NCBI GenBank assembly: GCA_034432135.1
Contig: DAOUCO010000116.1
Coordinates: 2,310 to 66,309 of the forward strand
Direction: 5' to 3'
Length of the DNA: 64,000 nt
From: Dehalococcoidales bacterium
GTDB taxonomy: Bacteria; Chloroflexota; Dehalococcoidia; Dehalococcoidales; RBG-16-60-22
In this document: positions 22,285 through 58,677 of the stretch, in pieces
How positions within the stretch are numbered: the first letter of the stretch is position 1
How the letters are laid out: each line of letters opens with the position of its first letter
Notes under the pieces: model-generated
Told to the model about the DNA's origin: nothing
Databases searched by the model: none
Seen by the model: the letters and a program-made list of their open reading frames with translations, nothing else
Made by a program: the position numbers and the translations under genes

Positions 22285-23265
22285 CTAAATGTTTAGATGG
22301 CAGGCTACCCAGTGATCTCCGCCGATATTTTTAAGTATGGGAATTAATTCGCGACAGGATTCCTTAGCATGAGGGCATCTTGGATGAAAAGAGCAGCCGC
22401 TAGGAGGGTTCATCGGGCTGGGAACATCGCCTGTTAAGATGATACGCTTTCGTAGTCGATCCAATGAAGGTGCGGGGATGGGAACCGCGGAAAGTAATGC
22501 CTGGGTATAAGGATGAAGAGGATTACCGTAGAGTTCGTCACTTTCGGTAATTTCTACGATTTTACCTAGATACATAACAGCAACACGATCGCTAATATGG
22601 CGCACCACAGAAAGGTCATGGGCAATGAATAGATAAGTGAGATTAAGTTCTTCTTTCAGTTTTATTAATAGTCTGATAATCTGTGCCTGTATTGATACGT
22701 CTAGTGCAGATACGGGTTCGTCACAGACAACAAATTTAGGTCTAACAGCTAGTGCCCGGGCAATCCCTATGCGTTGCCGCTGGCCACCACTGAACTCATG
22801 AGGATAACGTACAGCCATTCGTGGCTCAAGCTCGACCATGTTTAAAAGCTCTGCAACACGGTCCCTATATTCTTTACCCTTTGCTACTTTGTGTTCTAAA
22901 AGTGGTTCGCCTATAATGTCACCGGCTGTCATCCGCGGGTCAAGAGACGCGTAAGGGTCTTGGAAAATAAGTTGTATGTAACGGCGCATTTTTCTTAACT
23001 TTTCACCATGAAGTTTGGTAAGGTCTTCACCTTCAAAAATTACTTCTCCTGAGGTAATTTTATATAACTGTAAAATACTTCGTCCGAGAGTAGTTTTACC
23101 GCAACCGCTCTCGCCGACAAGTCCTAATGTTTCTCCCCTACGAATAAAAAAGCTAACATCATCTACTGCCTTGACATCAGCGACTTTCCGACGAAACACA
23201 CCAGCAGTCACCGGGAAAAACATTCGTAAATTTTTAACATCGATTAGCGTATTATTGTCTGCCAT
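22285..23265 (-). CDS. Oligopeptide/dipeptide ABC transporter ATP-binding protein (OppF/DppF-like)
   Basis: Walker [10 protein letters not shown], signature FSGGQRQR, Walker [12 protein letters not shown], and an oligopeptide C-terminal Cys motif. Confidence 0.85.
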
Positions 23266-24269
23266 TATACTGCTACCTCTGCCAGTTGATTCACTTCATT
23301 GCTTCTGAAACAAGCAGCATAATGGTCTTTACCTACCATATTAAGCTCAGGTCTCTCATGCTTGCAACGGTCAACTGCTAATTTGCATCTGGGGCTGAAG
23401 GCACACATATCTTGTGATAACCGAACCAGATTGGGCGGAAGACCATCGATAACACTTAGGCTTTTTTCCCTTGGTAAGTCAAGACGAGGTACTGAGGCGA
23501 TTAATCCTATAGTGTAAGGGTGACGCGGTTCTTCATAAATTGCATTAGTAGGGCCTTTCTCTATTAGTCTACCAGCGTACATTACATTAACACTATCGGC
23601 ATAACGAGCTACAATTCCTAAGTTATGAGTGATAATAATAACCGCCGTATTGAATTGTGTCCGCAGGTTGTTTATCAGATCCAGAAGTTGTGCCTGCACG
23701 GTGACGTCAACTGAAGTTGTCGGTTCGTCAGCGATGATTAGCGAAGGCTTACAGCTTAATGCCATAGCAATCATTATTCTCTGTTGCATTCCGCCGCTAA
23801 ACTGGTGTGGGTAATCGTTTACCCTTCTTTCTGCGTCGGGTATGCCTACCAGTTTAAGTAATTTCACTGCCTCTTCAGCTGCAGATGCTTTATCCATCGA
23901 TAGATGAAGCTCCAGTGATTCGCATATCTGACGGCTGATACTTAATACCGGATTGAGAGAGGTCATCGGCTCTTGGAAAATCATCGCGATGCGCCCCCCT
24001 CTTATTAATCGCATTTCCTCTTCGCTAATTTTTAAGATGTCCCGACCTTCAAAAAAGATTTCACCGCCAACAATAATACCCGGGGGATAGGGGATGAGCC
24101 GCATGATCGATAAAGCACTTACACTCTTACCACATGCGCTTTCTCCCACTAATGCCACGCATTCCCCCTGTTTTACGCTATAAGATAACCCGTCAACAGC
24201 TCTTAATTCGCCTTCCTTCACATAGAAGTAGGTTTTTAAGTTTCTTATGTCTAGTATTACGTCTGCGAT
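23265..24269 (-). CDS. Oligopeptide/dipeptide ABC transporter ATP-binding protein (OppD/DppD-like)
   Basis: The track ORF starts at GTG 24221. The conserved first strand [15 protein letters not shown] lies in frame upstream of that. No ATG, GTG or TTG occurs between the upstream in-frame TGA (24276-24278) and 24221. ATC at 24267-24269 sits 6 nt after AAGAGGTGA. Confidence 0.75.
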
Positions 24270-24275
24270 GGTGGT

Positions 24276-25244
24276 TCACCTCTTTTTTATTTGTGCCGCT
24301 CTACCGTAGCGCCCTAAGCCACCCCTCAATCTTGGATCCCACAAATCACGCAATGCATCTCCAAACATATTTACGCCATATACTGCTAAAGCAAGAGCAA
24401 CACCTGGCCATAAAGCCATCCATGGAGCTTGGAGCATATAACGGCGCGCTGAACCTTGAAGCATACTGCCCCAGGTGGGTGTAGGAGGCGGAATGCCATA
24501 TCCGAGAAAGCTCAACATCGCCTCAGAAAGAATCATACTGCCTACTGTAAGGGTGAATCCAACTATAATCACAGGCATTATGTTAGGCAGAATATGGCGG
24601 AGCAGTATACTCGAAGTTTTAGTTCCGGTGGCTTCCGCTGCTTGGACATACATATTCTGTTTGACTCCTATAACAGCGCTCCTGATGGTTCTTGAAGCCA
24701 TAAATCCGGTGGTAATACCTAACACCAAAATAACCGGCACTAATCCTTGACCGATAATAGCCATTATGGCAATATAAAGGATTAATGATGGGAAACACAT
24801 AATAGCATCAACCAACCTTTGAAATATTATGTCGAACTTTCCTCCAAAATACCCTGAAATACCCCCGACCAGAAACCCAACAACCGCACTAAGGGCTGCC
24901 CCGGCTAGACCGACAATCATTGAGACACGTGCGCCATAAATAATGCGACTAAGCATATCACGCCCCATGTTATCGGTTCCTAAAAGGTGTGTGGCGGAAG
25001 GAGGACTCAAACGCTCGCTTAAACTGGTTTCGTTATATCCATAAGGAGCCAAAAAATCGGCAAATATACCCACCAAGAATAATCCCACAACAATGATTGC
25101 ACCTATTAGACCAAGCGGTTTTTCCTTAACCAGTCTGATGCACAGGTCGACGAATATGCCATGTCTTTTCTCTTCGGTTTTTCCCCCCGGAATTCCTTTT
25201 ACTATCATTGAGGGTGGTATATTTTCGTTTCTCTCGCTCACCAC
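24276..25244 (-). CDS. ABC transporter permease (OppC/DppC-like)
   Basis: 322 aa, multi-TM BPD_transp_1 type, in operon order with the ATPases. Confidence 0.8.
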   Translation of the reverse strand: MVSERNENIPPSMIVKGIPGGKTEEKRHGIFVDLCIRLVKEKPLGLIGAIIVVGLFLVGIFADFLAPYGYNETSLSERLSPPSATHLLGTDNMGRDMLSRIIYGARVSMIVGLAGAALSAVVGFLVGGISGYFGGKFDIIFQRLVDAIMCFPSLILYIAIMAIIGQGLVPVILVLGITTGFMASRTIRSAVIGVKQNMYVQAAEATGTKTSSILLRHILPNIMPVIIVGFTLTVGSMILSEAMLSFLGYGIPPPTPTWGSMLQGSARRYMLQAPWMALWPGVALALAVYGVNMFGDALRDLWDPRLRGGLGRYGRAAQIKKR

Positions 25245-25255
25245 ACACTTTTTCC

Positions 25256-26245
25256 TTATCTATACTGAACTCTAGGGTCTATCCAAGCGTAAAAAAGGTC
25301 AACCACAACATTGGATAATAACACTATGACAGCTAGAAGCATGTTTATTCCTTGAATCAAGGGATAATCTCGCTGGCTCAATGCCTGAAAAGTCAAAATA
25401 CCAACTCCCGGTAGTGCAAATATCTGTTCCATGATCACTTCACCGACAATCACCATTGGAATCATACCCCCTATAATGGTGACTATCGGTAATAAAGCAT
25501 TTTTAAGCGCATGCCTTATAGTAACCGCGCGTTCTTTTAAACCCTTTGCCCAGGCAGTCCTTATATAATCCTGTCTTAATGTTTCCAACATCATTGTTCG
25601 TATCATTCTCATCAGTGTGCCGCCCATTACCATGCCAGTTATGAAGCCCGGAAGTATAAACTGTGCCAAGTTTCCCAAAAAATCTTCAGTAATCGAGATG
25701 TATTCCGTGGGAGGCGACCATCCCCACCAGATAGGTGGATAGACAAATATTAACGTTGCAATCCAAAATGAGGGAACGGAAATGAATATAATCGCAAGGC
25801 TACGGCCAAAATAATCACCTATTGTATCTTGTCGTATCGCTGAATAAATACCGATAGGAAAAGAAATCAGGAGAGCTGTTATGATAGCAATAAGCCCAAG
25901 CTCAATAGAAATTGGAAGTCTTTCAACTATGAGCTTGATTACATCTTCATTTTTCCATAAGGATTTTCCCAGATTCCCTTCAAAAAGGCCTTGGTACTCA
26001 CCTGTCTCTTGGGGTGCTACCCCTAACCATCGGAAAAATTGGATATAGATTGGTGCATCTAATCCCAGTGCTTTTTCAAGGTTCGCTCGGGTCATTTCCG
26101 ATGCCGTTCCGGATGTGTTCATCTGAGCAAGCATCATATCAATAACATCACCTGGTATGAAGCGTGTAGATAAAAAGACTAATACAGCAATTAACAAAAA
26201 GGTGGGTATAATTAAAAACAATCGTCTAATTGCGTAAGCAGTCAT
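25256..26245 (-). CDS. ABC transporter permease (OppB/DppB-like)
   Basis: N-terminus MTAYAIRRLFLIIPTFLLIAVLVF is typical of OppB. 329 aa. Confidence 0.8.
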   Translation of the reverse strand: MTAYAIRRLFLIIPTFLLIAVLVFLSTRFIPGDVIDMMLAQMNTSGTASEMTRANLEKALGLDAPIYIQFFRWLGVAPQETGEYQGLFEGNLGKSLWKNEDVIKLIVERLPISIELGLIAIITALLISFPIGIYSAIRQDTIGDYFGRSLAIIFISVPSFWIATLIFVYPPIWWGWSPPTEYISITEDFLGNLAQFILPGFITGMVMGGTLMRMIRTMMLETLRQDYIRTAWAKGLKERAVTIRHALKNALLPIVTIIGGMIPMVIVGEVIMEQIFALPGVGILTFQALSQRDYPLIQGINMLLAVIVLLSNVVVDLFYAWIDPRVQYR

Positions 26246-26743: not shown

Positions 26744-27247
26744 TTAAGGTAAAAATTGTGGTTTGAAATCCAAACCCAGGAGATTACGCGTAATATCGCG
26801 CACTTTTTTCAATAGATTGTAAAGTTGGTTTTTTTCCTCGACAGAAAGCTGGCTAAATATCAGATGGATTGAATATTCTGTGACTTTCTCATTGTATAAG
26901 AAATCACCTTTTTCAGTTAACGTAATATAATTCTTCAATTCCCCCTTTTTTTTGGCCTTCTTTACTAATCCTTTTTTTTCCATTCGGTTGATGAGAGTGG
27001 AAACTGAATTGAATTCCTTTAAAGTCCACTTCGCCAGCTCGTCTATCGTGATGGGTCTGTTCTCTCGAGAAAGCATATTCATAATTCTAACTTGGGCTTG
27101 GGTAAGCCGCAGATGTTTGAGTTCAAGCTCAACTGCATTATTCACAACACTGTGAGTTTGATCAAGTATGATAAGGAGATTAATATCTGGATCATTTTTT
27201 TTGGAGATTTTGCTTTTTTTATTTTCATCTTGATTGGGTTTATTCAT
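26744..27247 (-). CDS. MarR family transcriptional regulator
   Basis: Winged-HTH pattern LTQAQVRIMNMLSREN.PITIDELAK....NSVSTLINRMEKKGLV. Confidence 0.8.
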   Translation of the reverse strand: MNKPNQDENKKSKISKKNDPDINLLIILDQTHSVVNNAVELELKHLRLTQAQVRIMNMLSRENRPITIDELAKWTLKEFNSVSTLINRMEKKGLVKKAKKKGELKNYITLTEKGDFLYNEKVTEYSIHLIFSQLSVEEKNQLYNLLKKVRDITRNLLGLDFKPQFLP

Positions 27248-27556
27248 TTTACACCTTATTCTGGTAATTTATTTGACTCGTCTTTTTAGCTTAAAACATT
27301 CATATATGTAAATCAAGTAAAAGATAGAGTGAAAGCATATAATTATTTCTTTAAATAAAGAGCTATTACTGTACACTTTCTAATACTCTGCCTAGCCTTT
27401 ACTATTAGTTTTGGAGTATCTCCTTTATTTTTTCTGGCCTTACCCCTGAATTAGCGCACCATATATTCATTAAAATCCACTTCGTACAATTCCGGATACG
27501 GTGTAATACATATCCTCCATCTTATAAAAAAAATCATCAATTTTCAATTTCATTAT

Positions 27557-27939
27557 TTAGTCTTCACTTCGTTTAAAAAGTCTTTTTGAATAGTCCAAAA
27601 CAGATTTTCCAGCGATACGTCCTATTGTAAAAGCAAAACCAAATGATTGTGGCTCTTGATTCACCTATCGATGCTGTACTCTCCAAGGATAATATCTCCT
27701 GCAGCATAGATTCCTGGAATTATTTCCTCTTCCTTGGTTAACACTTTTATACTGCCATTGACTTTAATGCCGACCGAGGTACTATAAGCATTATTAAAAC
27801 TCTTAAACTACAGAATTTTGGTTTTGTTACAAGGCGGAAATATTTGCTATGTTTAGCATAATTATCGTTATAGCCCACCACCGATTCCTAAAACTACCAC
27901 ATCTGCTTTAACACGCTCTATGGTATTTACATGATTCAT
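27557..27939 (-). pseudogene. Remnant of an FAD-dependent oxidoreductase (fumarate-reductase/SdhA-like), internally deleted and frameshifted
   Basis: The N-terminal piece reads MNHVNTIERVKADVVVLGIGGGL followed by a stop. The C-terminal pieces read ...IPGIYAAGDIILGEYS... and, in another frame, GFAFTIGRIAGKSVLDY.... The middle ~400 codons of a normal enzyme are missing. Confidence 0.7.
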
Positions 27940-27980
27940 ATTTTTTATCCTTTACACTCAAGATTAAAGAAAAAATTGCT

Positions 27981-29684
27981 CTAGTTAGTTGGTTTGATTT
28001 TATACTTGTTAATCGGTATGGGTAATGTTGTAAGATTCATCTTCCCGTTGTCTTGTCTAATAATTATCCATTTAAGCCAGTTTTTATCATCACGTTTAGG
28101 AAAATCTTCACGGAAATGGCAACCACGGCTTTCTTCTCTCATCAATGCTGCTCTGAGTGTTAGTTCAGCGCATAAAGCCATACTTCTAATTTCATGGCAT
28201 TTACTTAGGTAATGTAGATCCTTTGCCTGTAAAATTGTTATTTTTCCCTTCAATTCTTCAAGCCTTGCAAGAGCTTCATTCAAGCGTTCTTTGTTACGGC
28301 GAAGATTATATTTCATGGGCGCAGTTATATTTTGCAGGATATTTATGGCGTTATCTGTGGGAAAACCTTTGGAACGCTTTAGAGGGGCGAATATTTCATT
28401 TTTGATAGCCTTTATTTCAGAATCTTTTACAGCAATTGAAGGGGTTTCTTTCGCGTAGCGAGCAGCTGAAGGAACAGCCCAAGCTGCGCTAATAACTGCA
28501 AACATAATCCCTGATCCAGGTGTTATACCTGGGGGTGAATTTACCGCCCCCGCCACTGCCGAACCAGCGTAACTAGCATCACCGATAGCCCATAGTCCTT
28601 CAAGGCTGGTCTTCATATCATGGTCCACCTTGATACATGAGGTTTCACCATGTAAAGGCACTGCTATCTCACGTTTGACATCTGGTGGCAACCCATACTT
28701 TTTTTCTTTTTCAGCTGTTCTTTGCGACCATTCATTTAATTTTGGCAAGTTGATGTGCATTTCACCACTGAATGGAGAGCTTGATGGTGGAGGGGCGAAG
28801 TATATTGGACCTCTTCCTTCGGCTACTTCTTTTTCTAGGCCAACGGCTAACTGCACAGGCAAGAATACGCCGGTAGGCCCTTCATCCGGTAAGTATTTCT
28901 TCGGTAAATTTTCACCTAGAGAATTTACTAGAAATTGATAACCTACCATACCACTATCAGTATCCTGATATACAGTATGGCCGTAGAGGTTACCATATTC
29001 GGCGTTTCTCATCTCTGCACCGGCACGATAAGCTGCGGCAATTCCATCACCAGTACCGGCAATCCAAAATCTCCTTATTTTATATCCACAACTACCATTA
29101 GCCAACACAATAGCTTTAGACTTGAAAACATAGAATTTCCCAGTAATGATATCGAAGCCTACAGCACCGATAATTTTATTCGATTGTTTTACTAAGTCGA
29201 CAATGTGTATTTTATTAAAAAATCTTGTCCCCATTTTACGCGCTTTAGCTGCTAAAGGTAACATTAAATCAATATCGATAAATGTCATTGACCATTCAGG
29301 AGCCCAGAAAGCGGGAATAGTTACAAGTTTACCGTCCGGAGTTTTGGCTAATTTGGCGCCCCACTCACTGAATTGCTCTATTGCCTTATAAGTACTCTGA
29401 ACATATTTTGCGAGTACTTCCTGATCGTTTAAATAATATCCGGAGTTGCGAACCTGAAAATCCATAAATTTATCTGCGTTGTTATTTGGCGAAAGAAAGG
29501 CCAAAATCCCGCCGATTTTCGTGGCTTTCCCAGCCCAGCCGATAGTCTGTTTTTCAACAATTGTGACATCTAAATTCGGGTTTTCCTCTTTCGTCTTGAC
29601 AGCCGCTACAAGGCCACCAACACCACCACCAACAATTATTATGTCTGTAGTAATGGTTTCAACCGAATCATTTATATTAGCCAA
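27981..29684 (-). CDS. FAD-dependent oxidoreductase (SdhA/FrdA/AprA-like flavoprotein)
   Basis: Dinucleotide fold DIIIVGGGVGGLVAA, plus AIGDASYAGSA and the C-terminal ESRGCHFREDFP motif. Confidence 0.8.
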   Translation of the reverse strand: MANINDSVETITTDIIIVGGGVGGLVAAVKTKEENPNLDVTIVEKQTIGWAGKATKIGGILAFLSPNNNADKFMDFQVRNSGYYLNDQEVLAKYVQSTYKAIEQFSEWGAKLAKTPDGKLVTIPAFWAPEWSMTFIDIDLMLPLAAKARKMGTRFFNKIHIVDLVKQSNKIIGAVGFDIITGKFYVFKSKAIVLANGSCGYKIRRFWIAGTGDGIAAAYRAGAEMRNAEYGNLYGHTVYQDTDSGMVGYQFLVNSLGENLPKKYLPDEGPTGVFLPVQLAVGLEKEVAEGRGPIYFAPPPSSSPFSGEMHINLPKLNEWSQRTAEKEKKYGLPPDVKREIAVPLHGETSCIKVDHDMKTSLEGLWAIGDASYAGSAVAGAVNSPPGITPGSGIMFAVISAAWAVPSAARYAKETPSIAVKDSEIKAIKNEIFAPLKRSKGFPTDNAINILQNITAPMKYNLRRNKERLNEALARLEELKGKITILQAKDLHYLSKCHEIRSMALCAELTLRAALMREESRGCHFREDFPKRDDKNWLKWIIIRQDNGKMNLTTLPIPINKYKIKPTN

Positions 29685-29715
29685 ATTAATACTCCTTTCA
29701 TTTAGTTAGTGATGG

Positions 29716-29955
29716 TTAAAATGATGAACGTAAAGGTGCGGGTATATTTGGAACTACTTCAATACATTGAGCCGGACATGCAATTTCACAAGCAAGGCAC
29801 CAGACGCAATCTTCTGGATACGCAACAACCGGTTTATCCTCGATATCGTCCCAGCGGATAACGTCTGCAAAACAAGCCTTCATACAGGATTTACAGCTTT
29901 GGCAACTATCGCGGTCGATTTTAATTTCTTTTACCCAAGTTTTAGGTGTTGCCAT
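29716..29955 (-). CDS. 2x[4Fe-4S] ferredoxin
   Basis: CQSCKSCMKAC and CVWCLACEIACP cluster motifs. 79 aa, lying just downstream (on the minus strand) of the 29967..30632 gene and immediately upstream of the flavoprotein gene. Confidence 0.85.
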   Translation of the reverse strand: MATPKTWVKEIKIDRDSCQSCKSCMKACFADVIRWDDIEDKPVVAYPEDCVWCLACEIACPAQCIEVVPNIPAPLRSSF

Positions 29956-29966
29956 ATTCTCACCTC

Positions 29967-30632
29967 CTATTTAATGTATATAATCTTAGAACCTACCTTT
30001 TTAATTTTTAAAGAACACTGCCGGTTAATAGTTGGGTCAGTTACTGATTGCCACATTTTCCATAAAGCAGGGAGGAAATCTTTGAATGTGCTGACTTCAG
30101 CGATATTATGTGCTCTCCAGCCTCCGCCAGTGGGCTTCTTCCCACTAGGGTGTTTCATTACGGAGCCTGATGGAGGAATACCGCCTGGGGGAGGACCACT
30201 GCCCGGCGGTGGTTCTGGAAATCCATGCATGCAGGAACGCATCTTGCACCCACCGGGAATGGATTCCCATTGATGGGAAAGCATTACCATAGCTCTTGTG
30301 CCCGGCTGTGCGCCAGTTGAACCTGCAGTTAGGAGATGTTCATAAGTCCAGAAATCTTTTTGTTCTTCAGTCCCAATATTAGGATCCACCCACTCGATAC
30401 GGAGATTCATTATGGGACCATAATCAATACTCTCGGTGGCAATCTGGACAGCACCGATATGACCACTTATGGGTGGTTTAATTTCCCATCTGAACCCTTT
30501 GTGTTCATCAGGACACCACAACTCATAGCCTTTTTCCATATTCACCCACCACCAATCAAGCATTTCCGCTGTCACTCCGGGGATTATATGATCGACAACT
30601 ATCCATCCTTCAAGAAATTTTTCTTCACTCAT
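29967..30632 (-). CDS. Hypothetical protein, possibly DAPG/phloretin-hydrolase-like, with Pro/Gly-rich insert
   Basis: 221 aa with a Trp-rich N-terminus (LDWWWVNMEKGYELWCPDEH). It has H58...E89 and an H175-x3-E179 pair. The P/G-rich stretch is PEPPPGSGPPPGGIPPSGS. The family assignment is from memory only. Confidence 0.4.
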   Translation of the reverse strand: MSEEKFLEGWIVVDHIIPGVTAEMLDWWWVNMEKGYELWCPDEHKGFRWEIKPPISGHIGAVQIATESIDYGPIMNLRIEWVDPNIGTEEQKDFWTYEHLLTAGSTGAQPGTRAMVMLSHQWESIPGGCKMRSCMHGFPEPPPGSGPPPGGIPPSGSVMKHPSGKKPTGGGWRAHNIAEVSTFKDFLPALWKMWQSVTDPTINRQCSLKIKKVGSKIIYIK

Positions 30633-31098
30633 TTTTTCTTTACCTCCTCAAATATTTATTCACACACTTAGGTCTAATACTGCTGAAGAATTTACTTGAA
30701 TTATATATATGCCTCGTCTCACGCTTGACAAAAATTTAAAGAGATAATATTATTTTAGATAATCATATAATATTAAATATAATAAATCAAGTATGATATG
30801 CAATGTGACATTTTAATTTAAAAATAAGCAAAATTTTATCTCACCATTCGTGTTGTTATTACCTAAAAACTAAAAAATGTTACTGGATATTCTCCGCATT
30901 AATGACGATGGTTATAGAAATTGTATACACACTGCAGAGCCCAATTCTCGGAAGTATCTTCCAAATAATTCTCAGCTATATATTTTCGCTGAATTTGTGC
31001 TAGGTTAATATTGTTATTTTTTGTTTTCCGCATATAAAAAGAGATGGCGAAAAAAAAGCAATCCTATATATAAATAATACTAAAGGAAGAGGACGAAA

Positions 31099-31863
31099 AT
31101 GAGCAAAATGTTTGATTTAAGCGGTAAGGTAGCCATAGTGGTTGGCGGACACGGCGGCATCGGTAAAGCTATTGCGTTAGGACTTGCAGATGCCGGGACC
31201 GATGTAATCGTTGCCAGCCGCAACTTTGATGCTTTAAAAGCCGTTACTAAAGAAATTGAGGCCAAGGGGAAAAAATCGTTGGCGGTTTCTGTCGACATAG
31301 TAGATGAGAAACAGGTTAGCGCGATGGTGGAAAAAGTCCTAAAAGTTTTTCCCCACATCGATATCCTGGTAAACTCGGCCGGGCTAGCCATTCGCAAACC
31401 GGCTGATACTTTCCCCATCGACGAATGGCAAAAGGTGATGGATATCAATACCCGCGGCACATTCCTCTGTTGCCAAATGGTCGGGCGGGTGATGATAAAA
31501 CAGAAGAGTGGTAAAATAATAAACATTTCTTCTGTCAGGGGTAGATATGGACTGCCGTCCGGTTACGCGGCTTATTGCCCCAGCAAGGGCGCCGTTGATA
31601 CTCTCACCCGTACTTTAGCCTGCGAATGGGCCAAAAGTAACGTACTTGTCAACGCCGTAGCCCCCACGGTGGTAGAAACGGAGCTAACTAAAGATTTACT
31701 CGCCGATCCAGAGTATGCCAAGACGATGAAGTCACGTATCCCGATGGGTAAATGGGCACTTCCAGAAGATATCGTAGGCCCTGTTATTTTCTTTGCTTCT
31801 GATGCATCCAATTTTGTGACTGGGCAGATTCTGTACGTTGATGGTGGTGTAACTACCTGGTAG
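31099..31863 (+). CDS. Short-chain dehydrogenase/reductase
   Basis: GGHGGIGKA cofactor motif, catalytic YxxxK (YCPSKGAV), 254 aa. Confidence 0.85.
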   Translation: MSKMFDLSGKVAIVVGGHGGIGKAIALGLADAGTDVIVASRNFDALKAVTKEIEAKGKKSLAVSVDIVDEKQVSAMVEKVLKVFPHIDILVNSAGLAIRKPADTFPIDEWQKVMDINTRGTFLCCQMVGRVMIKQKSGKIINISSVRGRYGLPSGYAAYCPSKGAVDTLTRTLACEWAKSNVLVNAVAPTVVETELTKDLLADPEYAKTMKSRIPMGKWALPEDIVGPVIFFASDASNFVTGQILYVDGGVTTW

Positions 31864-31895
31864 ACAATAATCATTACCAGAAAAGGAGAGATAAA

Positions 31896-32834
31896 ATGAG
31901 AAAAAAAGTATTTGTTGATTTAACGCATCCCTTTAGTGCAGAAATTCCCCGTTGGCCTTATTTTGATAAGCCAGTAATCGATAACGCCCATACCATGGCT
32001 AAAGGCGGCATTCTAACCCAGAAGATTACCTGCGTCATGCACGCCGGCACACATTGCGATGCTCCCCGTCATGTTATGGAAATTGAGTTTGATGGCAAGA
32101 GAGCACGCTACACCCATGAAATGCCGGTTGATGCTTACACTGGCGATGCCGTCTGCCTTCCCATTGAAATAGAGCGCTGGGGATTGATTGGCCCGAAACA
32201 TCTTGAATCTGCCTGTGAAAAAGTAGGCATCAAGCCGGATGAACTGGAAGGTATGGTCATCTGTCTAAATACAGGTATGCATCGCAAGTTTGATGATTCA
32301 AAAGAGTATTATCATTATTCTTGCGGTACGGGTGTCGAAGCCGGCAGATGGTTTGTAAAGCACAAGGTTAAGTGTGTCGCCATGGATATGCAGGCTTTAG
32401 ACCATCCTCTCCATACTGCTATGGGCAATAACGGTATGACTCGTATGAACTTGATTGGCGCTTCCGGCAAACCTATCACGGAAGAGTACACCGAGCAGTT
32501 CGGTGAAGAGGCTTATGCTGAATTTGATAAGTTTACTTATATCAAGCTTTTCGGCAAAGAAGCTTATGATAAAAAGTTCGGTGATCTGGAAGCCATCGGC
32601 TGCTGGGGTACCTGGGAGCCATGCCATAAATTAATGCTGGGTCATGGGATTGTCGGGATTGAAAATCTCGGCGGTGACTTGGATAAAGTGTCCGGTAAAC
32701 GCTTTAGATTCTATTGTTTCCCTCTCCGCTGGTACATGGGCGACGGTTCGATGGTGCGTTGCGTTGCGGAAATCGATAAAGATGATTTGAATGATGTTCC
32801 TGATAGAACCTATACTTACGGCGGATGCATATGA
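31896..32834 (+). CDS. Cyclase-family metal-dependent hydrolase (kynurenine-formamidase fold)
   Basis: HAGTHCDAPRH matches the HxGTHxDxPxH cyclase-family motif. Confidence 0.75.
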   Translation: MRKKVFVDLTHPFSAEIPRWPYFDKPVIDNAHTMAKGGILTQKITCVMHAGTHCDAPRHVMEIEFDGKRARYTHEMPVDAYTGDAVCLPIEIERWGLIGPKHLESACEKVGIKPDELEGMVICLNTGMHRKFDDSKEYYHYSCGTGVEAGRWFVKHKVKCVAMDMQALDHPLHTAMGNNGMTRMNLIGASGKPITEEYTEQFGEEAYAEFDKFTYIKLFGKEAYDKKFGDLEAIGCWGTWEPCHKLMLGHGIVGIENLGGDLDKVSGKRFRFYCFPLRWYMGDGSMVRCVAEIDKDDLNDVPDRTYTYGGCI

Positions 32835-32891
32835 AGTGACTACATTGCTGTTTATTTACCCCGGGCTTTCAAAACTAAATGCAGAGGATAT

Positions 32892-33230
32892 ATGAAGAAA
32901 TTCAGTTTAACGAATGCAAAGCCTTACACGGCCGCCAAACATTTCAATATGACGGCTATGCGGCTCCAGGGAAAAGATGAGACTGGCATCCAAAAGTTCT
33001 GGGTCGGTTTATCCTATTTCCTACCAGGTGGAGGTGCCGAATGGGCTTATGAAGATAACCCTAATGAGAAGGTTTATCTAGTCTTAGACGGAGAAATCAC
33101 TGTAAGAACTAAAAAAGAAGAAATTACCCTTGGGCCGATGGATTCTGTCTATCTGGCTCCAAACGAAGGCAGGGAAATAATCAATAAGACCAATAAACCA
33201 GTAACGATGCTGGTAATAATAAATTATTAA
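32892..33230 (+). CDS. Cupin domain protein
   Basis: 112-aa beta-barrel pattern with ...FLPGGGAEWAYED...VYLVLDGEITV.... Confidence 0.65.
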   Translation: MKKFSLTNAKPYTAAKHFNMTAMRLQGKDETGIQKFWVGLSYFLPGGGAEWAYEDNPNEKVYLVLDGEITVRTKKEEITLGPMDSVYLAPNEGREIINKTNKPVTMLVIINY

Positions 33231-33257
33231 CGGCCATAATTCCCGTGAGAAATCTTA

Positions 33258-34499
33258 ATGTTAGAAAAGGAAGCTTGCTCGATGGCTGGATTGCTTGAAG
33301 GGGTAAAAGTAATAGCTTTTGACCAGGTAGTAGCAACACCAGCTGCAACAGCAGTATTAGCAGACTGGGGGGCAGAAGTTATAAAAATCGAGCCCATCTG
33401 GGGTGACTGGCAGAGAAGCTTGGTAAGCTTCAACAGGACTCCACTTATTATAAAAAATGAAAAAGGTGAAATTGAACTCCATTTCGAATTCCTTAACCGA
33501 AATAAGAAAAGCGTAGCCCTGAATTTACGTACACTAAAAGGAATGGAGGTAATGTATAAACTTCTCGAGAATGCGGATGTTTTTACTACTAACTATTCCA
33601 TTGATGTGTTGGAGAAATTCAGATTAACTTATACCGACCTCAAGGATAGATTCCCCGGCTTGATACATTGTCTCCTCACTGGCTATGGGACCAAAGGGCC
33701 AAAAGCCAGAGACCGTGGATACGACTACGTCGCTGCCTGGGCATACGGCGGGCTTATGGGCCTAATCACAGCCGACCCTAATGTTCCGCCGGCGATACAA
33801 CGCCCCGGCATGATGGATATGGTGGCATCAGCCCATATGACCAGCGGTATCTGTGCTGCTCTTTATTACAAACAAAAAACAGGCAGGGGGCAATCCTTGG
33901 AGCTTTCGTTATACCATGCGGCTGTCTGGACCATTGGATTGGATACCCAGATAAATCTTTACGGTTATCCCCCGAAGATATGGGATAGGGTTCATAATCC
34001 GAATCCCATGTATAACTCATATAAAGCCAAAGACAGGTGGATGATGCTGGTGCACCCCAATCAAGAATACTGGGCACAGTTCTGTAGAGCGATTGGCAAA
34101 GAGGAATGGATAAATGACCCTCGCTATAATACCATGGAAAAGAGGGATCAACACGCAGAGGAGTTGATTAAAGAGCTAGACGCTCTCTTCGCCACCAAGA
34201 CCTGGGTTGAATGGGAAGAAAGTTTCAAGGCCAACGACCTTATCGCCAGCGGGACACATCCAATTCCTGAAATTCTGGAAGATGAACAAGCCCTCGTTAA
34301 TAATTTTTTCACGGATATCGAACATCCTATAATGGGAGAGGCAAGATTATTGAATAGCCCGATTCAGTTTAGCGAGACCCCGGCCAAGATCACCAGTATC
34401 GCACCCCAATTGGGCATCCACACCGAAGAAGTGTTACTCAACGCTGGTTACACCTGGGAAGACCTGGAAGAAATGAAGCAACAAAAAGTGATCCCTTAA
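33258..34499 (+). CDS. Family III CoA-transferase (CaiB/BaiF type)
   Basis: LEGVKVIAFDQVVATPAATAVLADWGAEVIKIEP is a typical N-terminus for this family. 413 aa. Confidence 0.85.
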   Translation: MLEKEACSMAGLLEGVKVIAFDQVVATPAATAVLADWGAEVIKIEPIWGDWQRSLVSFNRTPLIIKNEKGEIELHFEFLNRNKKSVALNLRTLKGMEVMYKLLENADVFTTNYSIDVLEKFRLTYTDLKDRFPGLIHCLLTGYGTKGPKARDRGYDYVAAWAYGGLMGLITADPNVPPAIQRPGMMDMVASAHMTSGICAALYYKQKTGRGQSLELSLYHAAVWTIGLDTQINLYGYPPKIWDRVHNPNPMYNSYKAKDRWMMLVHPNQEYWAQFCRAIGKEEWINDPRYNTMEKRDQHAEELIKELDALFATKTWVEWEESFKANDLIASGTHPIPEILEDEQALVNNFFTDIEHPIMGEARLLNSPIQFSETPAKITSIAPQLGIHTEEVLLNAGYTWEDLEEMKQQKVIP

Positions 34500-34536
34500 C
34501 TTACCAAACCAAAACCTTTATCAAAGGGGCAAGAAA

Positions 34537-35331
34537 GTGAGGCTAAAAGATAGAGTAGCCTTGGTCACAGGCGCCAGCCGCGGTATCGGCCGGGCCATTG
34601 CTCTGGCATTGGCTAATGAAGGAGCTGATGTAGCGCTTAATTGCTCGACAACTATAGAGGAAGCCAGAAAAGTCGCTAGGGAAATAGAAAAAGTGGGGCG
34701 GAGAATTTTGGTGGTTCAGGCTGACGTATCCGATAAATCAGCGGTTGATAAAATGTTACAGAAAGTACTTGCACAGTTCGGCAGGATTGATATACTTATC
34801 AACAATGCTGGTATGTCAGTTGTTGGTCCTTCGGCGGAACTGAGAGAAGATATCTGGAGGCGGGGTATTGATGTCATGTTGACGGGTGTTTTCTTTTGCA
34901 GTCAAGCTGTGGGCAGGGAGATGATTAAACAGAAAAGTGGTAAAATCATCAATATAGCTTCAATCAACGGCGTAGCAGCTTTCCCGGAGAGGGCCTGTTA
35001 TTGCAGCGCCAAAGCCGGAGTAATTGCTCTTACCAAAGTGTTAGGGATAGAATGGGCAAAATATAACATCAATGTTAACGCGGTAGCTCCAGGATATGTA
35101 GAGACGGAATTGGTTAATAATCTTGTATCTCAGGGTAAATTGAACATCAAAGAACTGGCAGAAAGAACACCCAGCGGTAAGCTTACGGGTGTGGAAGATG
35201 TTACCGAAGCAGTGCTGTTTTTAACTTCAGAATCATCTAAGAATATTAACGGCCAGACAATTGTTATTGATGGCGGTTGGACGGCTTACGGTTACGTTGA
35301 GTCCTGGCTTCGAAACAAGAAAAAAGTCTAA
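34537..35331 (+). CDS. Short-chain dehydrogenase/reductase (FabG-like)
   Basis: TGASRGIGRAIA, NNAG and YCSAKAGV motifs. It is a paralog of the 31099 gene; both share MIKQKSGKIINI. Confidence 0.85.
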   Translation: MRLKDRVALVTGASRGIGRAIALALANEGADVALNCSTTIEEARKVAREIEKVGRRILVVQADVSDKSAVDKMLQKVLAQFGRIDILINNAGMSVVGPSAELREDIWRRGIDVMLTGVFFCSQAVGREMIKQKSGKIINIASINGVAAFPERACYCSAKAGVIALTKVLGIEWAKYNINVNAVAPGYVETELVNNLVSQGKLNIKELAERTPSGKLTGVEDVTEAVLFLTSESSKNINGQTIVIDGGWTAYGYVESWLRNKKKV

Positions 35332-35375: not shown

Positions 35376-36203
35376 GTGACCAGATGGCATGACTATGTAA
35401 TAGAACAGGGTTCATTGCCGGATTGGCCCTACCCGATACGCTTCGGCAAGGAACAGGAAATCGAAGTTGATGTCCTTGTAGTGGGGGGTGGTATTGCCGG
35501 CTGCTGGGCAGCCATTGCCGCCGCCAGAGAAGGGTTAAACGTAGCAATTATAGAAAAAGGTGATGTGCAGCGTAGCGGAGCCGGCGGACCAGGCTGTGAT
35601 CACTGGTGCAATGCTCCGGCAAATCCTCTTTCCAACGTAGACCCGGATGAGTGGGCAATACATATGACCGAACGCCCTTACTCCAATGGCATCGGTATTC
35701 AAATACAGTGCAGAGAAAACTGGGACACTTTGCAAGAAATGGAAATGATGGGCGGTAAAATCCGTGATACGAATGATGAATATAAAGGCGCTAAAGGTCG
35801 AGATGAAAAAACTAAGTTAATGATTTCACCGCGTTATACCAAAATACATAGTTATGTTCTTGATTATGAGAAAATCGGCCCGCCCAAGTCAGGTGATAGA
35901 TTGAATAACGTGGTCATCAGGGTCTGGGGAAGCACATTTAAACCGGCGCTTAAGAAAGAATGTAAACGGCTTGGCGTAAAAATATTCGACCGTGTTATGG
36001 GGACAGCATTGCTTAACGAAAACGGTATCCAAGGAGGCAGGGTGATAGGCGCGATGGGTTTTAATAATCGCACTGGCGAATTCATGATTTTTAAAGCCAA
36101 AGCAACTATCTTGTCGACAGGAGGCAGCGGATCAATGTGGATGATGAGCACCGAGTTATGCGGGTACTCCAACATGATGTCTCGTCCTGCCACTGGATGG
36201 TGA
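35376..36203 (+). pseudogene. 5' fragment of an FAD-dependent oxidoreductase (AprA/FrdA-like), truncated at about 36180
   Basis: The N-terminal dinucleotide fold DVLVVGGGIAGCWAA is present, but only about 270 codons remain. The ORF ends in junk (SRPATGW) where it collides with the antisense helicase fragment. Confidence 0.7.
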
Positions 36204-36705
36204 GCGCCGCCGGCACAATTATAAGGACCCGCTCCAGAGCGTTCCTCATCTTGAGCTCTTTCATGAGTAGACCGGTCATAATGGTTTTGCCAGCACCGGG
36301 GTCGTCTGCTAGCAGGAATCGCAGACGAGCCTGAGGTAACATTTTCCCGTATACCGCCTCAATCTGGTGCGGCAGGGAGCGAATACCGGAAAGGCTTACG
36401 GCAAATAGCGGGTCATACGCATATGCCAAGGCGATACGGTGGGATTCAATGAGCAAGCGTAGGTCTTGAGCGGAGGCTAATTGTACTATTTGCTGTGGCG
36501 TAGAGACCAAGGTTTTAAGTAAGCCCTCGGCTTCCTCGGCTGTAAGGAATGTTTCCTTGATTGTGCCATCATCTGCTCGTACCTGGAGTGCCAGCAATTT
36601 CCCCAAAGGCTTTACCGCCTCTACCAGCACCGGGTACGGGAAGTGGCTTTCCAGCATAATCTTCTGGCCGACTAAAGCCTTGGTTCTATCCGCTGTCTCA
36701 GACAC
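36181..36705 (-). pseudogene. 5' fragment of an SNF2/DEAD-like helicase, truncated after motif I/Ia
   Basis: Sequence reads ...LPHQIEAVYGKM...FLLADDPGAGKTIMTGLLMKEL...VLIIVPAALTIQWQDE. Coherent sequence then stops. Track ORF 36106..36705 continues as nonsense through the opposing FAD gene. Confidence 0.7.
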
Positions 36706-47860: not shown

Positions 47861-47895
47861 TTTAAATTTGATGTGTTTTAACAGGAGGAAAGCCT

Positions 47896-58641: not shown

Positions 58642-58677
58642 TGAATCTAATGCATTAGCGAAAGGACCGGTGAGACT

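Follow-up and report, generated by a model that had tools for sequence, protein, structure and literature searches.

Does the gene cluster in this stretch of Dehalococcoidales bacterium DNA encode the anaerobic breakdown of phloroglucinol (1,3,5-trihydroxybenzene), and if so, by which lower route? The window, that is, the whole stretch analyzed, spans 64,000 nt of assembly GCA_034432135.1 (contig DAOUCO010000116.1, positions 2,310 to 66,309, forward strand). Exact copies of four of its proteins (CoA-transferase, first short-chain dehydrogenase, hydrolase, and UvrC) are recorded on 74,921-bp NCBI contig(s), and the window therefore matches a real assembly. All ORFs and domains claimed in an earlier note on this DNA were recovered in place by ORF calling and Pfam searches, and the proposal that the region is a polyphenol or phloroglucinol catabolism island is supported by a cyclase with 81% identity to a characterized enzyme and by neighbors that match a conserved cluster. 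Our preferred reading, to which we give a probability of about two in three, is that this island would degrade phloroglucinol through a branch in which a CoA-transferase (CoAT) and a second short-chain dehydrogenase (SDR2) lead to triacetyl-CoA. The block from marR to SDR2 (26744 to 35331) is syntenic in many independent metagenome/MAG loci at 65 to 93% protein identity, with 35331 as the right-hand limit of synteny, and the dN/dS of the cluster genes is 0.03 to 0.14 wherever dS is unsaturated, showing that the cluster is under purifying selection; given this synteny and the low dN/dS, the arrangement reflects more than chance.

Probable ring reduction and ring opening

The key prediction of the earlier note, that ring opening in the phloroglucinol pathway falls to the cyclase at 31896 to 32834 (plus strand; PF04199, E = 4e-30), held up well. 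Rather than falling outside the dihydrophloroglucinol cyclohydrolase (DPGC) clade, this protein represents the canonical long form: it aligns end to end, at 81% identity, with the biochemically characterized CsDPGC of Clostridium scatologenes (reference sequence from the supplement of PMC10470551) and is 84 to 93% identical to homologues in 80 species, including those of known phloroglucinol clusters. Its motif MHAGTHCDAPRH fits HxGTHxDxPxH, and PRWPYF, DHPLHT, WEPCH, and RWYMGDGS are likewise retained, as is every metal-ligand motif and Trp/Tyr substrate position to which Zhou et al. 2023 draw attention. Its assignment as a Mn-dependent, retro-Claisen ring-opening DPGC is thus strongly supported by sequence. 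Counting against our reading, the cyclase of most sister clusters is a shorter paralogue with about 52% identity to DPGC. This short form, too, retains every active-site motif.

Immediately 5' of DPGC, in the slot that phloroglucinol reductase (PGR) occupies in canonical clusters, lies SDR1 (31099 to 31863, plus strand; adh_short, E = 4e-58), a noncanonical "clade B" SDR. Its proposed identity as the PGR is in keeping with this slot and with PGR-specific motifs but not with clade membership, as it is only 33% identical to the crystallized PGR (PDB 5g4k) and scores 220 bits on a canonical-PGR HMM, on which generic SDRs reach at most 152 and members of the canonical clade at least 420. It is also nearer to gluconate-5-dehydrogenase-type SDRs (197 bits versus 146 for PGR) and, at 43% identity, closer to its operon mate SDR2 than to the crystallized PGR, both of which, like the low identity to the crystallized enzyme, count against our reading. 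SDR1 and PGR have in common an Arg three residues past the catalytic Ser (SSVRG/SSARS), a Tyr at Ycat-3, and "PTV" instead of "PG." SDR1 is 69 to 85% identical to the sole SDR of those Dehalococcoidia clusters in which TfD (3-hydroxyacyl-CoA dehydrogenase family) and TAL (BKACE) are present. Proteins of its clade supply the single SDR of clusters from Dehalococcoidia and Proteobacteria (Klebsiella, Martelella, and Brenneria) that are canonical in all other respects; their scores fall between those of true PGRs and generic SDRs, and they have the three PGR-specific motifs. Judged by its position, the motifs it shares with PGR, and the logic of the pathway, SDR1 is presumed to be an NADPH-dependent PGR that would convert phloroglucinol to dihydrophloroglucinol, the ring of which DPGC would then open hydrolytically to give (S)-3-hydroxy-5-oxohexanoate.

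The small cupin that follows (32892 to 33230, plus strand; 112 aa; PF07883) adjoins DPGC in 53/63 loci, with identities of 43 to 88%. The canonical HxH..E..H metal motif was looked for in its sequence and is absent, and the protein is not mentioned in Zhou 2023. It is apparently conserved in phloroglucinol clusters of all types and would play an accessory part in the pathway.

A CoA-transferase and a dehydrogenase in the TfD-TAL slot

The phloroglucinol pathway that has been characterized at the gene level continues downstream with TfD and TAL rather than with a CoA-transferase (Zhou 2023). These two enzymes come after DPGC in about 60 canonical clusters; the canonical order, cupin-PGR-TfD-DPGC-TAL(-thiolase-CtfAB), is found in about 50 Firmicute, proteobacterial, and spirochaete loci, and eight Dehalococcoidia loci (L001, L004, L015, L017, L020, L025, L027, and L029) have SDR-DPGC-cupin-TfD-TAL. 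In contrast to these, CoAT-SDR2 stands in for TfD-TAL in the window and in about 35 Dehalococcoidia loci related to it, and the pair occupies the exact TfD-TAL slot in the window, L006, L013, L023, L082-86, L089, L091-92, L099-109, L112-115, and L121-122. A search across the whole window for TfD, TAL, and thiolase found none of them.

CoAT (33258 to 34499, plus strand) is a full-length family III CoA-transferase (PF02515, E = 2.5e-102), although its homologues suggest a true start 8 codons downstream of the called one. Its GYD motif, the Asp of which is presumably catalytic, aligns with the same motif of the best solved homologue, SUGCT (9br6). We propose that it activates 3-hydroxy-5-oxohexanoate or triacetate to the CoA ester. 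SDR2 (34537 to 35331, plus strand) is FabG-like; its best solved relatives are FabG (2uvd), (3R)-hydroxyacyl-CoA dehydrogenase (2et6), BbsD, and 3-hydroxybutyrate dehydrogenase (6zzq), and it scores 246 bits on the NCBIfam model of the last of these enzymes, slightly below the cutoff of 258. It therefore resembles, in sequence, SDRs that act on thioesters and 3-hydroxy acids, and it contains TGASRGIGRAIA, which we take to be the NADP-type motif of FabG. Its proposed role is the dehydrogenation of 3-hydroxy-5-oxohexanoyl-CoA, or of the free acid, to the 3,5-dioxo compound. Among the loci retrieved by CoAT homology, for which denominators vary (28, 32, or 36), the cupin is immediately 5' of CoAT in 28/32, SDR2 immediately 3' in 34/36, and a DPGC-family cyclase present in 22/28; SDR2, for its part, always comes paired with CoAT in these loci. 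Two sets of loci count against our reading: the CoAT-SDR2 pair stands without phloroglucinol genes in L081, L117, and L125, and SDR1-cupin-CoAT-SDR2 occurs without any cyclase in L087, L088, and L096.

Since CoAT-SDR2 exactly replaces TfD and TAL, we infer that the pair would convert the C6 hydroxy-keto acid to 3,5-dioxohexanoyl-CoA (triacetyl-CoA), either by CoA transfer followed by oxidation of the CoA ester, as in the Eubacterium oxidoreducens scheme, or by oxidation to triacetate followed by CoA transfer, as in that of Pelobacter acidigallici. The product would be triacetyl-CoA, as in both schemes. The earlier note had equated the enzyme order SDR, hydrolase, CoA-transferase, SDR with the classical pathway; this fits the cell-extract scheme but not the gene-level pathway, which uses TfD and TAL. 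The two CoA-transfer schemes and their NADPH balance are discussed in Zhou 2023, at which time no P. acidigallici genome was available; the CoA-transfer scheme rests on cell-extract work only, about 30 years old, and our literature searches found no paper assigning genes to this branch. Because the scheme is known from cell extracts only, the match in enzyme order is a match to a scheme without assigned genes, and the interest of the cluster lies here: CoAT and SDR2 are probably the never-identified genes of that route. As both SDRs carry NADP-type motifs, the NADPH spent on ring reduction could be regenerated by the dehydrogenation step, which, if true, would make the pathway redox neutral, as reported for Pelobacter. 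A thiolase encoded elsewhere would then split triacetyl-CoA to acetyl-CoA units; no CoAT-type cluster examined contains a thiolase, and so this last step depends on a gene outside our view, a point against our reading.

The divergent operon, regulator, and importer

Three genes run from the minus strand. The first (29967 to 30632; 221 aa) had been described as DAPG/phloretin hydrolase-like, and it does match PF18089 (DAPG_hydrolase; 54 bits, cutoff 22.7) and conserves the residues aligned to His129, Glu160, His270, and Glu274, which we take to be the four Zn ligands of PhlG; it belongs, however, to a truncated, divergent subfamily, lacking the N-terminal ~85 aa of Phy/PhlG and carrying a Pro/Gly-rich insert. 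The same type, 213 to 243 aa long, occurs in at least 200 database clusters. Its AF2 model is poor, with 3hwp and 5xe5 as the best fold matches, and we regard it as a putative Zn-dependent C-C hydrolase. The ferredoxin and flavoprotein reported beside it are both present. The ferredoxin (29716 to 29955; 79 aa; 2x[4Fe-4S], with two CxxCxxCxxxC motifs and Fer4 family matches), whose gene always sits between the other two in the loci examined, is presumed to be the electron-transfer partner of the flavoprotein, in an AprB-like role. The flavoprotein, encoded by the last gene (27981 to 29684; 567 aa; FAD_binding_2 and Succ_DH_flav_C), is of the AprA/fumarate reductase type; its best solved relatives are the PAPS reductase alpha subunit (8a8o) and AprA (1jnr), and its identity is 69 to 84% in syntenic loci and 36 to 39% beside canonical Spirochaetia and Clostridia clusters. 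This trio stays together across several phyla, also beside canonical clusters, and might form an upper module in which an acylphloroglucinol-type precursor undergoes redox modification before being cleaved to phloroglucinol. Because it also occurs apart from phloroglucinol genes, adjoining TRAP transporter, PrpD, and URO-D genes, its link to phloroglucinol is loose.

Such a hydrolase would also release an acyl side product (e.g., an arylpropionate or hydroxy acid), and CoAT and SDR2 could conceivably activate and oxidize that product instead, with the lower pathway (TfD/TAL or an aldolase) elsewhere in the genome. Family III CoA-transferases include aryl-lactate/cinnamate and 2-hydroxyisocaproate enzymes, some CoAT homologues are labeled hadA or "(R)-2-hydroxy-4-methylpentanoate CoA-transferase," and CoAT-SDR2 lies 8 kb from the trio in L128 and alone in L081. 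We nevertheless consider this explanation unlikely: the pair follows SDR1-cyclase-cupin in loci that lack the trio (L089, L099-L109, L121, and L122), it fills the precise TfD-TAL slot of sister Dehalococcoidia clusters, and the trio occurs without it in L129 and beside canonical clusters.

The marR gene and ABC importer noted upstream are both present, with Pfam support. The MarR-family regulator (26744 to 27247, minus strand; MarR/MarR_2) has as its nearest NCBIfam model HpaR, a regulator of aromatic catabolism, although it scores well under the cutoff; homologues with 65 to 72% identity are found at this position in L006, L013, L023, L089, and L112. It is presumed to repress the divergent operons and so would regulate the cluster. 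The AT-rich intergenic region between them (30633 to 31098) has promoter-like sites, among them TTGACA-17-TATTAT on the plus strand (30725 to 30753; 11/12 positions matched); no convincing operator palindrome was found in this region. The Opp-type importer (19682 to 26245, minus strand; Pfam and locus comparison) comprises an SBP_bac_5 substrate-binding protein (19682 to 21841; PF00496, E = 8.7e-56), two ATPases (22285 to 23265, ABC_tran and oligo_HPY; 23265 to 24221), and two permeases (24276 to 25244, BPD_transp_1 and OppC_N; 25256 to 26245), the second of each being identified by the size and position of its ORF and by comparison with the genes called in the homologous locus L089. Two ATPases and two permeases likewise precede marR in L089 and L106, and homologues of the binding protein occur beside the cluster in L092 (88% identity) and immediately 3' of the flavoprotein gene in L021 (50%). 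The importer probably takes up the substrate of the cluster. An FAD C-terminal remnant lies at 21862 to 22071, and a serine recombinase is encoded at 16336 to 18153.

The molybdenum enzyme and the borders of the cluster

The pyrogallol transhydroxylase-like Mo enzyme pointed out at 56 kb (56143 to 58641, plus strand), 21 kb from the cluster, is a homologue of the pyrogallol-phloroglucinol transhydroxylase large subunit, with 909 bits to that of P. acidigallici pyrogallol hydroxytransferase (PDB 4v4c) and an AhtL-like first domain, but it has no adjacent beta subunit, and none was found in a search of the whole window. It is 55 to 59% identical to Mo enzymes encoded immediately 5' of SDR1 in L087, L099, L101, L103, L105, L109, and L121. 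Seven loci carry the full operon MoA-MoB-SDR1-cyclase-cupin-CoAT-SDR2, which ties the CoAT module to pyrogallol/phloroglucinol chemistry, and the Mo enzyme of the window may feed phloroglucinol into the pathway.

The enzymes of this Mo family catalyze various transhydroxylations, as work on Pelobacter massiliensis has shown, and the substrate, as set by SDR1, could be not phloroglucinol itself but a relative among the polyphenols or cyclic 1,3-diones, for example a substituted phloroglucinol or a dione derived from resorcinol or hydroxyhydroquinone. The position of SDR1 outside the characterized PGR clade and the shorter cyclase of most sister clusters are in keeping with this, but it too seems improbable to us, as the cyclase of the window is of the long type found in known clusters with its Trp/Tyr positions intact, the SDR1 clade serves otherwise canonical clusters, and even the short cyclase keeps the active-site motifs.

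At the right boundary, a flavoprotein N-terminal fragment (35376 to 36203, plus strand; 275 aa; second Frd/AprA-like, FAD-binding N terminus only) has no continuation in any frame and abuts a truncated SNF2/DrmD-like gene (36106 to 36705); it is a nonfunctional rearrangement scar. These truncated flanking genes, the FAD remnant, the recombinase, the lack of a thiolase and Mo beta subunit in the window, and the unequal dS of the two operons in comparison with L092 might suggest that the island is mobile DNA, in decay or recently shuffled, with no working pathway here. This is very improbable given that each of the 12 ORFs of the cluster is intact over its full length, that dN/dS is low, and that the arrangement persists in many independent lineages.

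The divergent operons and their predicted ring-opening enzyme

All of the ORFs named in the earlier note were present in the window, and their domains were confirmed with Pfam. The plus-strand operon encodes a classical SDR (SDR1, 31099-31863), a PF04199 cyclase-family protein (31896-32834; sequence MHAGTHCDAPRH), a small cupin of 112 amino acids (32892-33230), a full-length family III CoA-transferase (CoAT, 33258-34499), and a second SDR (SDR2, 34537-35331). Divergent from it, the minus strand carries a PF18089 DAPG-hydrolase-domain protein of 221 amino acids (29967-30632), a 79-amino-acid 2x[4Fe-4S] ferredoxin (29716-29955), and a 567-amino-acid FAD flavoprotein of the fumarate-reductase/AprA type (27981-29684), followed on the same strand by marR (26744-27247) and the five genes of an Opp-type ABC importer (19682-26245). 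A search of the divergent intergenic region for a MarR operator palindrome returned only a trivial AT palindrome. The UvrC encoded in the window shows 82 to 84% identity with its counterparts in "Chloroflexi bacterium RBG_13_51_52" and in Dehalococcoidales MAGs, which places the host among uncultured Dehalococcoidales-type bacteria. Taken as a whole, the cluster is likely to serve phloroglucinol degradation.

In Clostridium scatologenes, this pathway comprises a phloroglucinol reductase (PGR; an SDR), dihydrophloroglucinol cyclohydrolase (DPGC), a triacetate-forming dehydrogenase (TfD; 3-hydroxyacyl-CoA dehydrogenase family), and triacetate acetoacetate-lyase (TAL; BKACE family), with DPGC being a Mn-dependent "cyclase"-family retro-Claisen hydrolase (Zhou et al. 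2023, PMC10470551). The cyclase of the window, previously proposed as the ring opener of such a pathway, is indeed a close relative of the characterised enzyme: it is 81% identical (89% positives) to CsDPGC at full length over 311 aligned residues, with the reference sequence taken from the supplementary alignment of Zhou et al. 2023 (PMC10470551). The residues that Fig. S4 of that paper (PMC10470551) marks out are matched in the alignment by MHAGTHCDAPRH, WEPCH, GIENLGG, and PRWPYF. The HxGTHxDxPxH motif and the downstream His/Glu metal ligands are kept, as are Trp20/Tyr22, which stand in for the isatin-hydrolase substrate residues; both the Trp/Tyr pair and the metal ligands were singled out by Zhou et al. 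2023 (PMC10470551). Judged by its sequence, the protein may be called a dihydrophloroglucinol cyclohydrolase, and we consider its function settled short of an assay.

Homologues in 80 species (Clostridia, Spirochaetia, Proteobacteria, and Dehalococcoidia) are 84 to 92% identical to the window protein. Within the DPGC-homologue loci (L001-L080), this 84 to 92% identity extends across Dehalococcoidia, Clostridia, Spirochaetia, Klebsiella, and Martelella, and the neighbouring reductase is much less conserved, at 31 to 51% identity between clades; conservation so far above that of the adjacent gene suggests either extreme constraint or repeated horizontal transfer of the DPGC gene alone.

The reductase and the lower branch

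The earlier note set SDR1 against the reductase step of the classical pathway and named kinship to the PGR clade as a check. SDR1 falls outside the characterised PGR clade (PDB 5g4k and CsPGR; identities within the clade of ~53 to 79%), as it is 33% identical to 5g4k and 43% identical to its operon mate SDR2, and its PDB ranking is headed by gluconate-5-dehydrogenase-type SDRs. We take the 5g4k/5g4l entry to be the crystallised PGR because the canonical cluster SDR from one DPGC-homologue locus (L054) matches it with 351 bits. A tree of DPGC-adjacent SDRs splits into canonical clade A, which holds the characterised PGRs, and clade B, which holds SDR1 and has members in Dehalococcoidia, Klebsiella, Martelella, Brenneria, and one Bacillota MAG; against a clade-A HMM, scores are ≥420 bits within clade A, 200 to 226 within clade B (SDR1, 220), and no higher than 152 for generic SDRs. 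In the alignment, SDR1 has the catalytic Ser-Tyr-Lys of SDRs (SSVRG...YCPSK), and after beta-strand 2 it reads VIVASRN versus FMTGRN in PGR, with a basic Arg in both. Three features are common to clades A and B and missing from SDR2 and another SDR of the window: an Arg at position +3 from the catalytic Ser, a Tyr at position -3 from the catalytic Tyr, and PT(V/I) instead of PG. Clade-B SDRs are also the sole SDR beside DPGC in at least 13 loci with otherwise canonical TfD and TAL. Based on these shared motifs and this placement, SDR1 probably takes the PGR role, an assignment made by context that leaves it outside the characterised PGR clade.

The window cluster resembles those of C. scatologenes, Flavonifractor plautii, and Eubacterium ramulus in having the same DPGC (81%), an SDR directly upstream, and a small cupin as neighbour, and C. 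scatologenes-type PGR-DPGC-TfD-TAL clusters likewise often have a phloretin-hydrolase-family gene associated with them. It differs from them in that a family III CoA-transferase and a FabG-like SDR replace TfD (3HCDH) and TAL (BKACE), the reductase belongs to the other SDR clade, and thiolase and CtfAB are missing from the cluster. To place this difference, ORFs were called in the 80 DPGC loci and clustered, and recurrent families were annotated. The common architecture is cupin-SDR-TfD-DPGC-TAL, often with thiolase and CtfAB next, and most Dehalococcoidia loci read SDR-DPGC-cupin-TfD-TAL, where both subunits (alpha and beta) of a transhydroxylase-like Mo enzyme are often encoded close by. The order SDR-DPGC-cupin-CoAT-SDR2 was found in the window and in three Dehalococcoidaceae MAG loci (L006, L013, and L023), and synteny of the window with these three spans exactly marR to SDR2 (26744-35331). 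No match to TfD or TAL (queries from locus L015) was found in the whole window by tblastn at an E value of ≤1e-3, neither gene occurs in the CoAT-type loci, and no thiolase or canonical Phy was found within the window. Across the genomic contexts of CoAT and the loci of a CoAT-seeded metagenome scan, CoAT is immediately preceded by the cupin in 28 of 32 assessable loci, accompanied by a DPGC-family cyclase in 22 of 28, and immediately followed by an SDR2 homologue in 34 of 36; the complete string MoA-MoB-SDR1-cyclase-cupin-CoAT-SDR2 occurs in seven. Given these counts, the seven complete strings, and the lack of TfD and TAL in the window, TfD+TAL and CoAT+SDR2 behave as alternative cassettes for one slot of one operon type.

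Two variants of this region occur. An extra bicupin of 280 to 307 amino acids lies between the small cupin and CoAT in three of the compared loci (L100:2329-3252, L107:2841-3683, and L121:6120-6962). In a Dehalococcoidales variant (L021:8087-9857), an acetoacetate-CoA ligase (TIGR01217, 600 bits on the C-terminal part) directly follows SDR1-DPGC-cupin, at which point the contig ends; we considered this ligase as evidence of CoA activation of the ring-opening product and rejected it, as it may merely replace CtfAB downstream of TAL.

Almost all phloroglucinol clusters, whether canonical or of the CoAT type, pair DPGC with the small cupin (51 loci among L001-L080). This cupin is without the usual His metal motif and has the invariant blocks FW.G.S.FLPGGGA, EK.Y.VL.GE.T, and P.EGR...N..N. 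Among NCBIfam models it comes closest to the "beta-D-galactosidase" cupin NF050094 (BetDgalsidMYCTU; 89 bits, cut-off 175), which we take to be Mycobacterium tuberculosis Rv1717. Since M. tuberculosis is among the cluster carriers listed by Zhou et al. 2023 (PMC10470551), the beta-D-galactosidase annotation of this cupin may mislead. The cupin goes unmentioned in that pathway-defining paper (PMC10470551).

CoAT resembles SUGCT, formyl-CoA transferase Frc, and benzylsuccinate CoA-transferase BbsEF in having a full-length PF02515 domain (residues 13 to 389, E value of 2.5e-102) and a GYD motif, and SUGCT, Frc, and BbsF are its closest relatives. Its best solved homologue is SUGCT (PDB 9br6, 162 bits), with whose GYD motif its own aligns; the Asp of this motif is presumably the catalytic Asp of family III CoA-transferases. 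Unlike these enzymes, CoAT lies far below all characterised-family NCBIfam cut-offs (equivalog scores of 111 to 198 bits against cut-offs of 413 to 750), so that by NCBIfam it is equivalent to none of the named members (Frc, CaiB, SUGCT, and the mesaconate/glutarate transferases), and it belongs to a separate clade, which at ≥69% identity counts 120 or more database clusters, almost all of them from Dehalococcoidales-type metagenome contigs. SDR2 carries TGASRGIGRAIA, which we take to be the FabG motif. Among PDB entries it scores 196 bits with FabG, 173 with a hydroxyacyl-CoA dehydrogenase, 168 with BbsD, and 157 with 3-hydroxybutyrate dehydrogenase, and it reaches 246 bits with the NCBIfam 3-hydroxybutyrate dehydrogenase model, just under the cut-off of 258; these PDB and NCBIfam scores are too alike to decide between a free acid and a CoA ester as substrate or to order the steps.

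In the pathway we propose, SDR1 would reduce phloroglucinol, DPGC would then yield (S)-3-hydroxy-5-oxohexanoate, and CoAT and SDR2 would turn this acid into 3,5-dioxohexanoyl-CoA (triacetyl-CoA), cleavable by a thiolase; we lean slightly toward this specific role for the CoAT and SDR2 pair. A basic residue after beta-strand 2 marks an SDR as NADPH type, and by such cofactor rules both SDR1 and SDR2 would use NADP(H), with NADPH then being recycled inside the pathway. Comparable chemistry has been deduced from cell extracts: Brune and Schink (1992) reportedly found oxidation to triacetate and then CoA transfer to triacetyl-CoA in Pelobacter acidigallici, and Krumholz and coworkers (1987) are said to have proposed for Eubacterium oxidoreducens a route possibly via 3-hydroxy-5-oxohexanoyl-CoA to triacetyl-CoA. 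The two schemes are taken up in the discussion of Zhou et al. 2023 (PMC10470551). They need an NADPH reductase, a hydrolase, a CoA-transferase, and an NADP-type dehydrogenase, classes that match the window operon. In sister loci, a homologue of pyrogallol transhydroxylase is encoded immediately upstream, and an NADPH balance is predicted; Zhou et al. 2023 (PMC10470551) ascribe NADPH recycling to Pelobacter but not to TfD, which prefers NADH. The scheme, however, has no genes assigned to it in the papers found, with the P. acidigallici genome unavailable as of Zhou et al. 2023 (PMC10470551), E. oxidoreducens itself carries a TfD/TAL cluster (Zhou et al. 2023, PMC10470551), and the host here belongs to Chloroflexota rather than to Desulfobacterota or Firmicutes. 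In Collinsella sp. zg1085, as described where PMC13039779 cites Li et al. 2024, an aldolase cleaves 3-hydroxy-5-oxohexanoate to acetone and malonate semialdehyde; the PGR and DPGC upper part is held in common and the fate of 3-hydroxy-5-oxohexanoate differs, which, on that account, indicates that the lower branch is modular.

Most clusters of the CoAT type have in the DPGC slot a compact paralogue of 268 to 269 amino acids (15 loci, among them L092:3281-4090, L101:5638-6444, and L089:6434-7240), which is ~52% identical to DPGC and has three deletions, with all active-site motifs kept. That the 268-amino-acid cyclase of L089 is a frameshifted DPGC was ruled out, as the same 268- to 269-amino-acid form with intact motifs recurs in the 15 loci. 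L092 is otherwise the nearest relative of the window cluster (72 to 90% per protein), yet it has the compact cyclase, so the gene in this slot has been exchanged among closely related clusters. A different dione as the substrate is disfavoured for the window by the canonical DPGC but may apply to the sister clusters with the short cyclase. It is also improbable that CoAT and SDR2 serve an acid released by the hydrolase, ferredoxin, and flavoprotein trio of the minus strand instead, as the pair tracks the SDR1-cyclase-cupin core in loci that do not have the trio. Decay of the island is contradicted by its intact ORFs and dN/dS of 0.03 to 0.14.

A bolder reading, to which we give a probability of roughly 0.45, is that the CoA-dependent "triacetyl-CoA" branch of anaerobic phloroglucinol fermentation, for which genes have yet to be assigned, is encoded by CoAT-SDR2. 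Alongside the TfD/TAL and aldolase routes, it would make a third lower pathway, allowing NADPH-balanced, acetate-yielding use of tannin- and flavonoid-derived trihydroxybenzenes by anoxic-sediment Dehalococcoidia; this reading further includes three undescribed parts, namely a second PGR clade, a compact DPGC subtype, and a ferredoxin-dependent AprA-like reductase with a "mini-PhlG" hydrolase as a new upstream polyphenol-cleaving module. Phloroglucinol is a funnel intermediate of anaerobic flavonoid and tannin degradation, a process relevant to polyphenol metabolism in the gut and, through the "enzyme latch" debate, to how peat and sediments store carbon. The upper pathway of the window cluster is already of known type. 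Literature searches returned no gene-level account of the CoA-transferase branch or of Dehalococcoidia phloroglucinol clusters, and in the literature searched we found no description of the CoAT-SDR2 lower branch, the clade-B reductase, or the compact cyclase; for sediment Chloroflexi, only transhydroxylase genes were noted earlier (Hug et al. 2013). The annotation scheme CAMPER encodes PGR, DPGC, TfD, and TAL only, so genomes of the CoAT type would score as having an incomplete pathway. If the proposed pathway is real, Dehalococcoidales, an abundant group of anoxic sediments and aquifers, would be complete phloroglucinol and pyrogallol fermenters, the CoA-transferase step of a 30-year-old scheme, measured in Pelobacter extracts in 1992, would gain candidate genes, and the cupin and the minus-strand trio would be defined targets for new polyphenol biochemistry.

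The minus-strand trio

The suggestion that the minus-strand hydrolase (29967-30632) is DAPG/phloretin-hydrolase-like stood for its domain and metal site and failed for its full-length architecture. PF18089 matches with 54.3 bits (gathering score, 22.7) over profile positions 33 to 223 of 223, and the protein shares this domain and four Zn-ligand positions with PhlG (PDB 3hwp) and phloretin hydrolase Phy (5xe5). Unlike these, it has 221 instead of 270 to 300 amino acids, lacks the first ~85 residues and hence the full two-part architecture, and has a Pro/Gly-rich insert and a C-terminal extension; its gene is invariably accompanied by genes for a ferredoxin and an AprA-like flavoprotein. We take the Zn ligands of PhlG to be His129, Glu160, His270, and Glu274 (PhlG numbering); mapped by aligning a canonical family member, F9, to 3hwp and then through the family alignment, these positions correspond to the H of PDEH, the E of ATES, and the H..E of HNIAE in the window protein, and H44, E67, H175, and E179 are invariant in 40 homologues. 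No match to PDB chains was obtained with phmmer, so the link to PhlG/Phy runs only via the canonical family member and the Pfam model. An AF2 model built with 40 close homologues was poor (mean pLDDT, 57.8); its top Foldseek matches, 3hwp (probability, 0.99; TM, 0.43) and 5xe5, are weakly supportive of a PhlG/Phy-like fold. Database clusters of this family number 200 or more, and every one is labelled hypothetical.

The nearest solved relatives of the flavoprotein (27981-29684) are the PAPS-reductase alpha subunit and AprA, and together with the small di-cluster ferredoxin (29716-29955) it resembles an AprAB-like pair. The hydrolase-ferredoxin-flavoprotein order is kept in syntenic Dehalococcoidia loci, and it recurs, with a canonical Phy-type protein as the hydrolase, next to canonical clusters of Spirochaetia and Clostridia. 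The trio also occurs away from phloroglucinol genes, with a TRAP transporter and PrpD-family and URO-D-family genes in L129 and with MarR, URO-D, IclR, and an SBP5 importer in L128. It is clearly a functional unit; a reasonable though weakly supported reading is that, following a redox step, it cleaves an acylphloroglucinol-type compound and so releases phloroglucinol. Relative to L092, dS is 0.44 to 0.68 for the trio (27981-30632), whereas it is saturated or far higher for the compared plus-strand genes (31099-35331; SDR2, 1.31), pointing to different histories of the two operons through recombination or transfer of the trio. Elsewhere (L129:9001-17478, L128:9001-18555, L081, and L087), the mini-PhlG trio also adjoins TRAP transporter and MmgE/PrpD-family genes, and URO-D-family genes recur close to both the trio and CoAT-SDR2 pairs, a hint that Dehalococcoidia may have a broader, as yet uncharacterised network for aromatic acids.

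The Mo enzyme and the edges of the island

Of the pyrogallol-transhydroxylase-like Mo enzyme described in the earlier note (56143-58641, plus strand), the large subunit was upheld: it scores 909 bits over residues 5 to 831 with 4v4c, the P. acidigallici pyrogallol hydroxytransferase large subunit (PgthA/AthL). The adjacent Fe-S beta subunit expected of such an enzyme was not found beside the gene or in the window by tblastn with a cluster beta subunit; a nitroreductase-family gene follows the Mo subunit in its place (56143-59217).

Rearrangement scars flank the island. Downstream of SDR2, an N-terminal fragment of a second AprA/Frd-like flavoprotein (35376-36203, plus strand) abuts an N-terminal fragment of an SNF2/DrmD-like helicase (36106-36705, minus strand). 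On the other side, a flavoprotein C-terminal remnant (21862-22071, minus strand), 39% identical to residues 499 to 565 of the intact flavoprotein, lies just upstream of the SBP gene, an arrangement that echoes the flavoprotein-SBP order of L021, and a serine recombinase is encoded further upstream (16336-18153, minus strand). The window also encodes, at 558-4805 on the minus strand, a 1,415-amino-acid protein that combines two ATPase domains of the BcrAD/BadFG type with a "CoA enzyme activase" domain (DUF2229); activators of this type serve 2-hydroxyacyl-CoA dehydratase or benzoyl-CoA-reductase-like enzymes. Finally, another small gene group, at 46865-50252, consists of a member of the NAD-dependent epimerase/dehydratase family, one more SDR, and a convergently encoded ThDP-dependent enzyme with acetolactate-synthase-like architecture.
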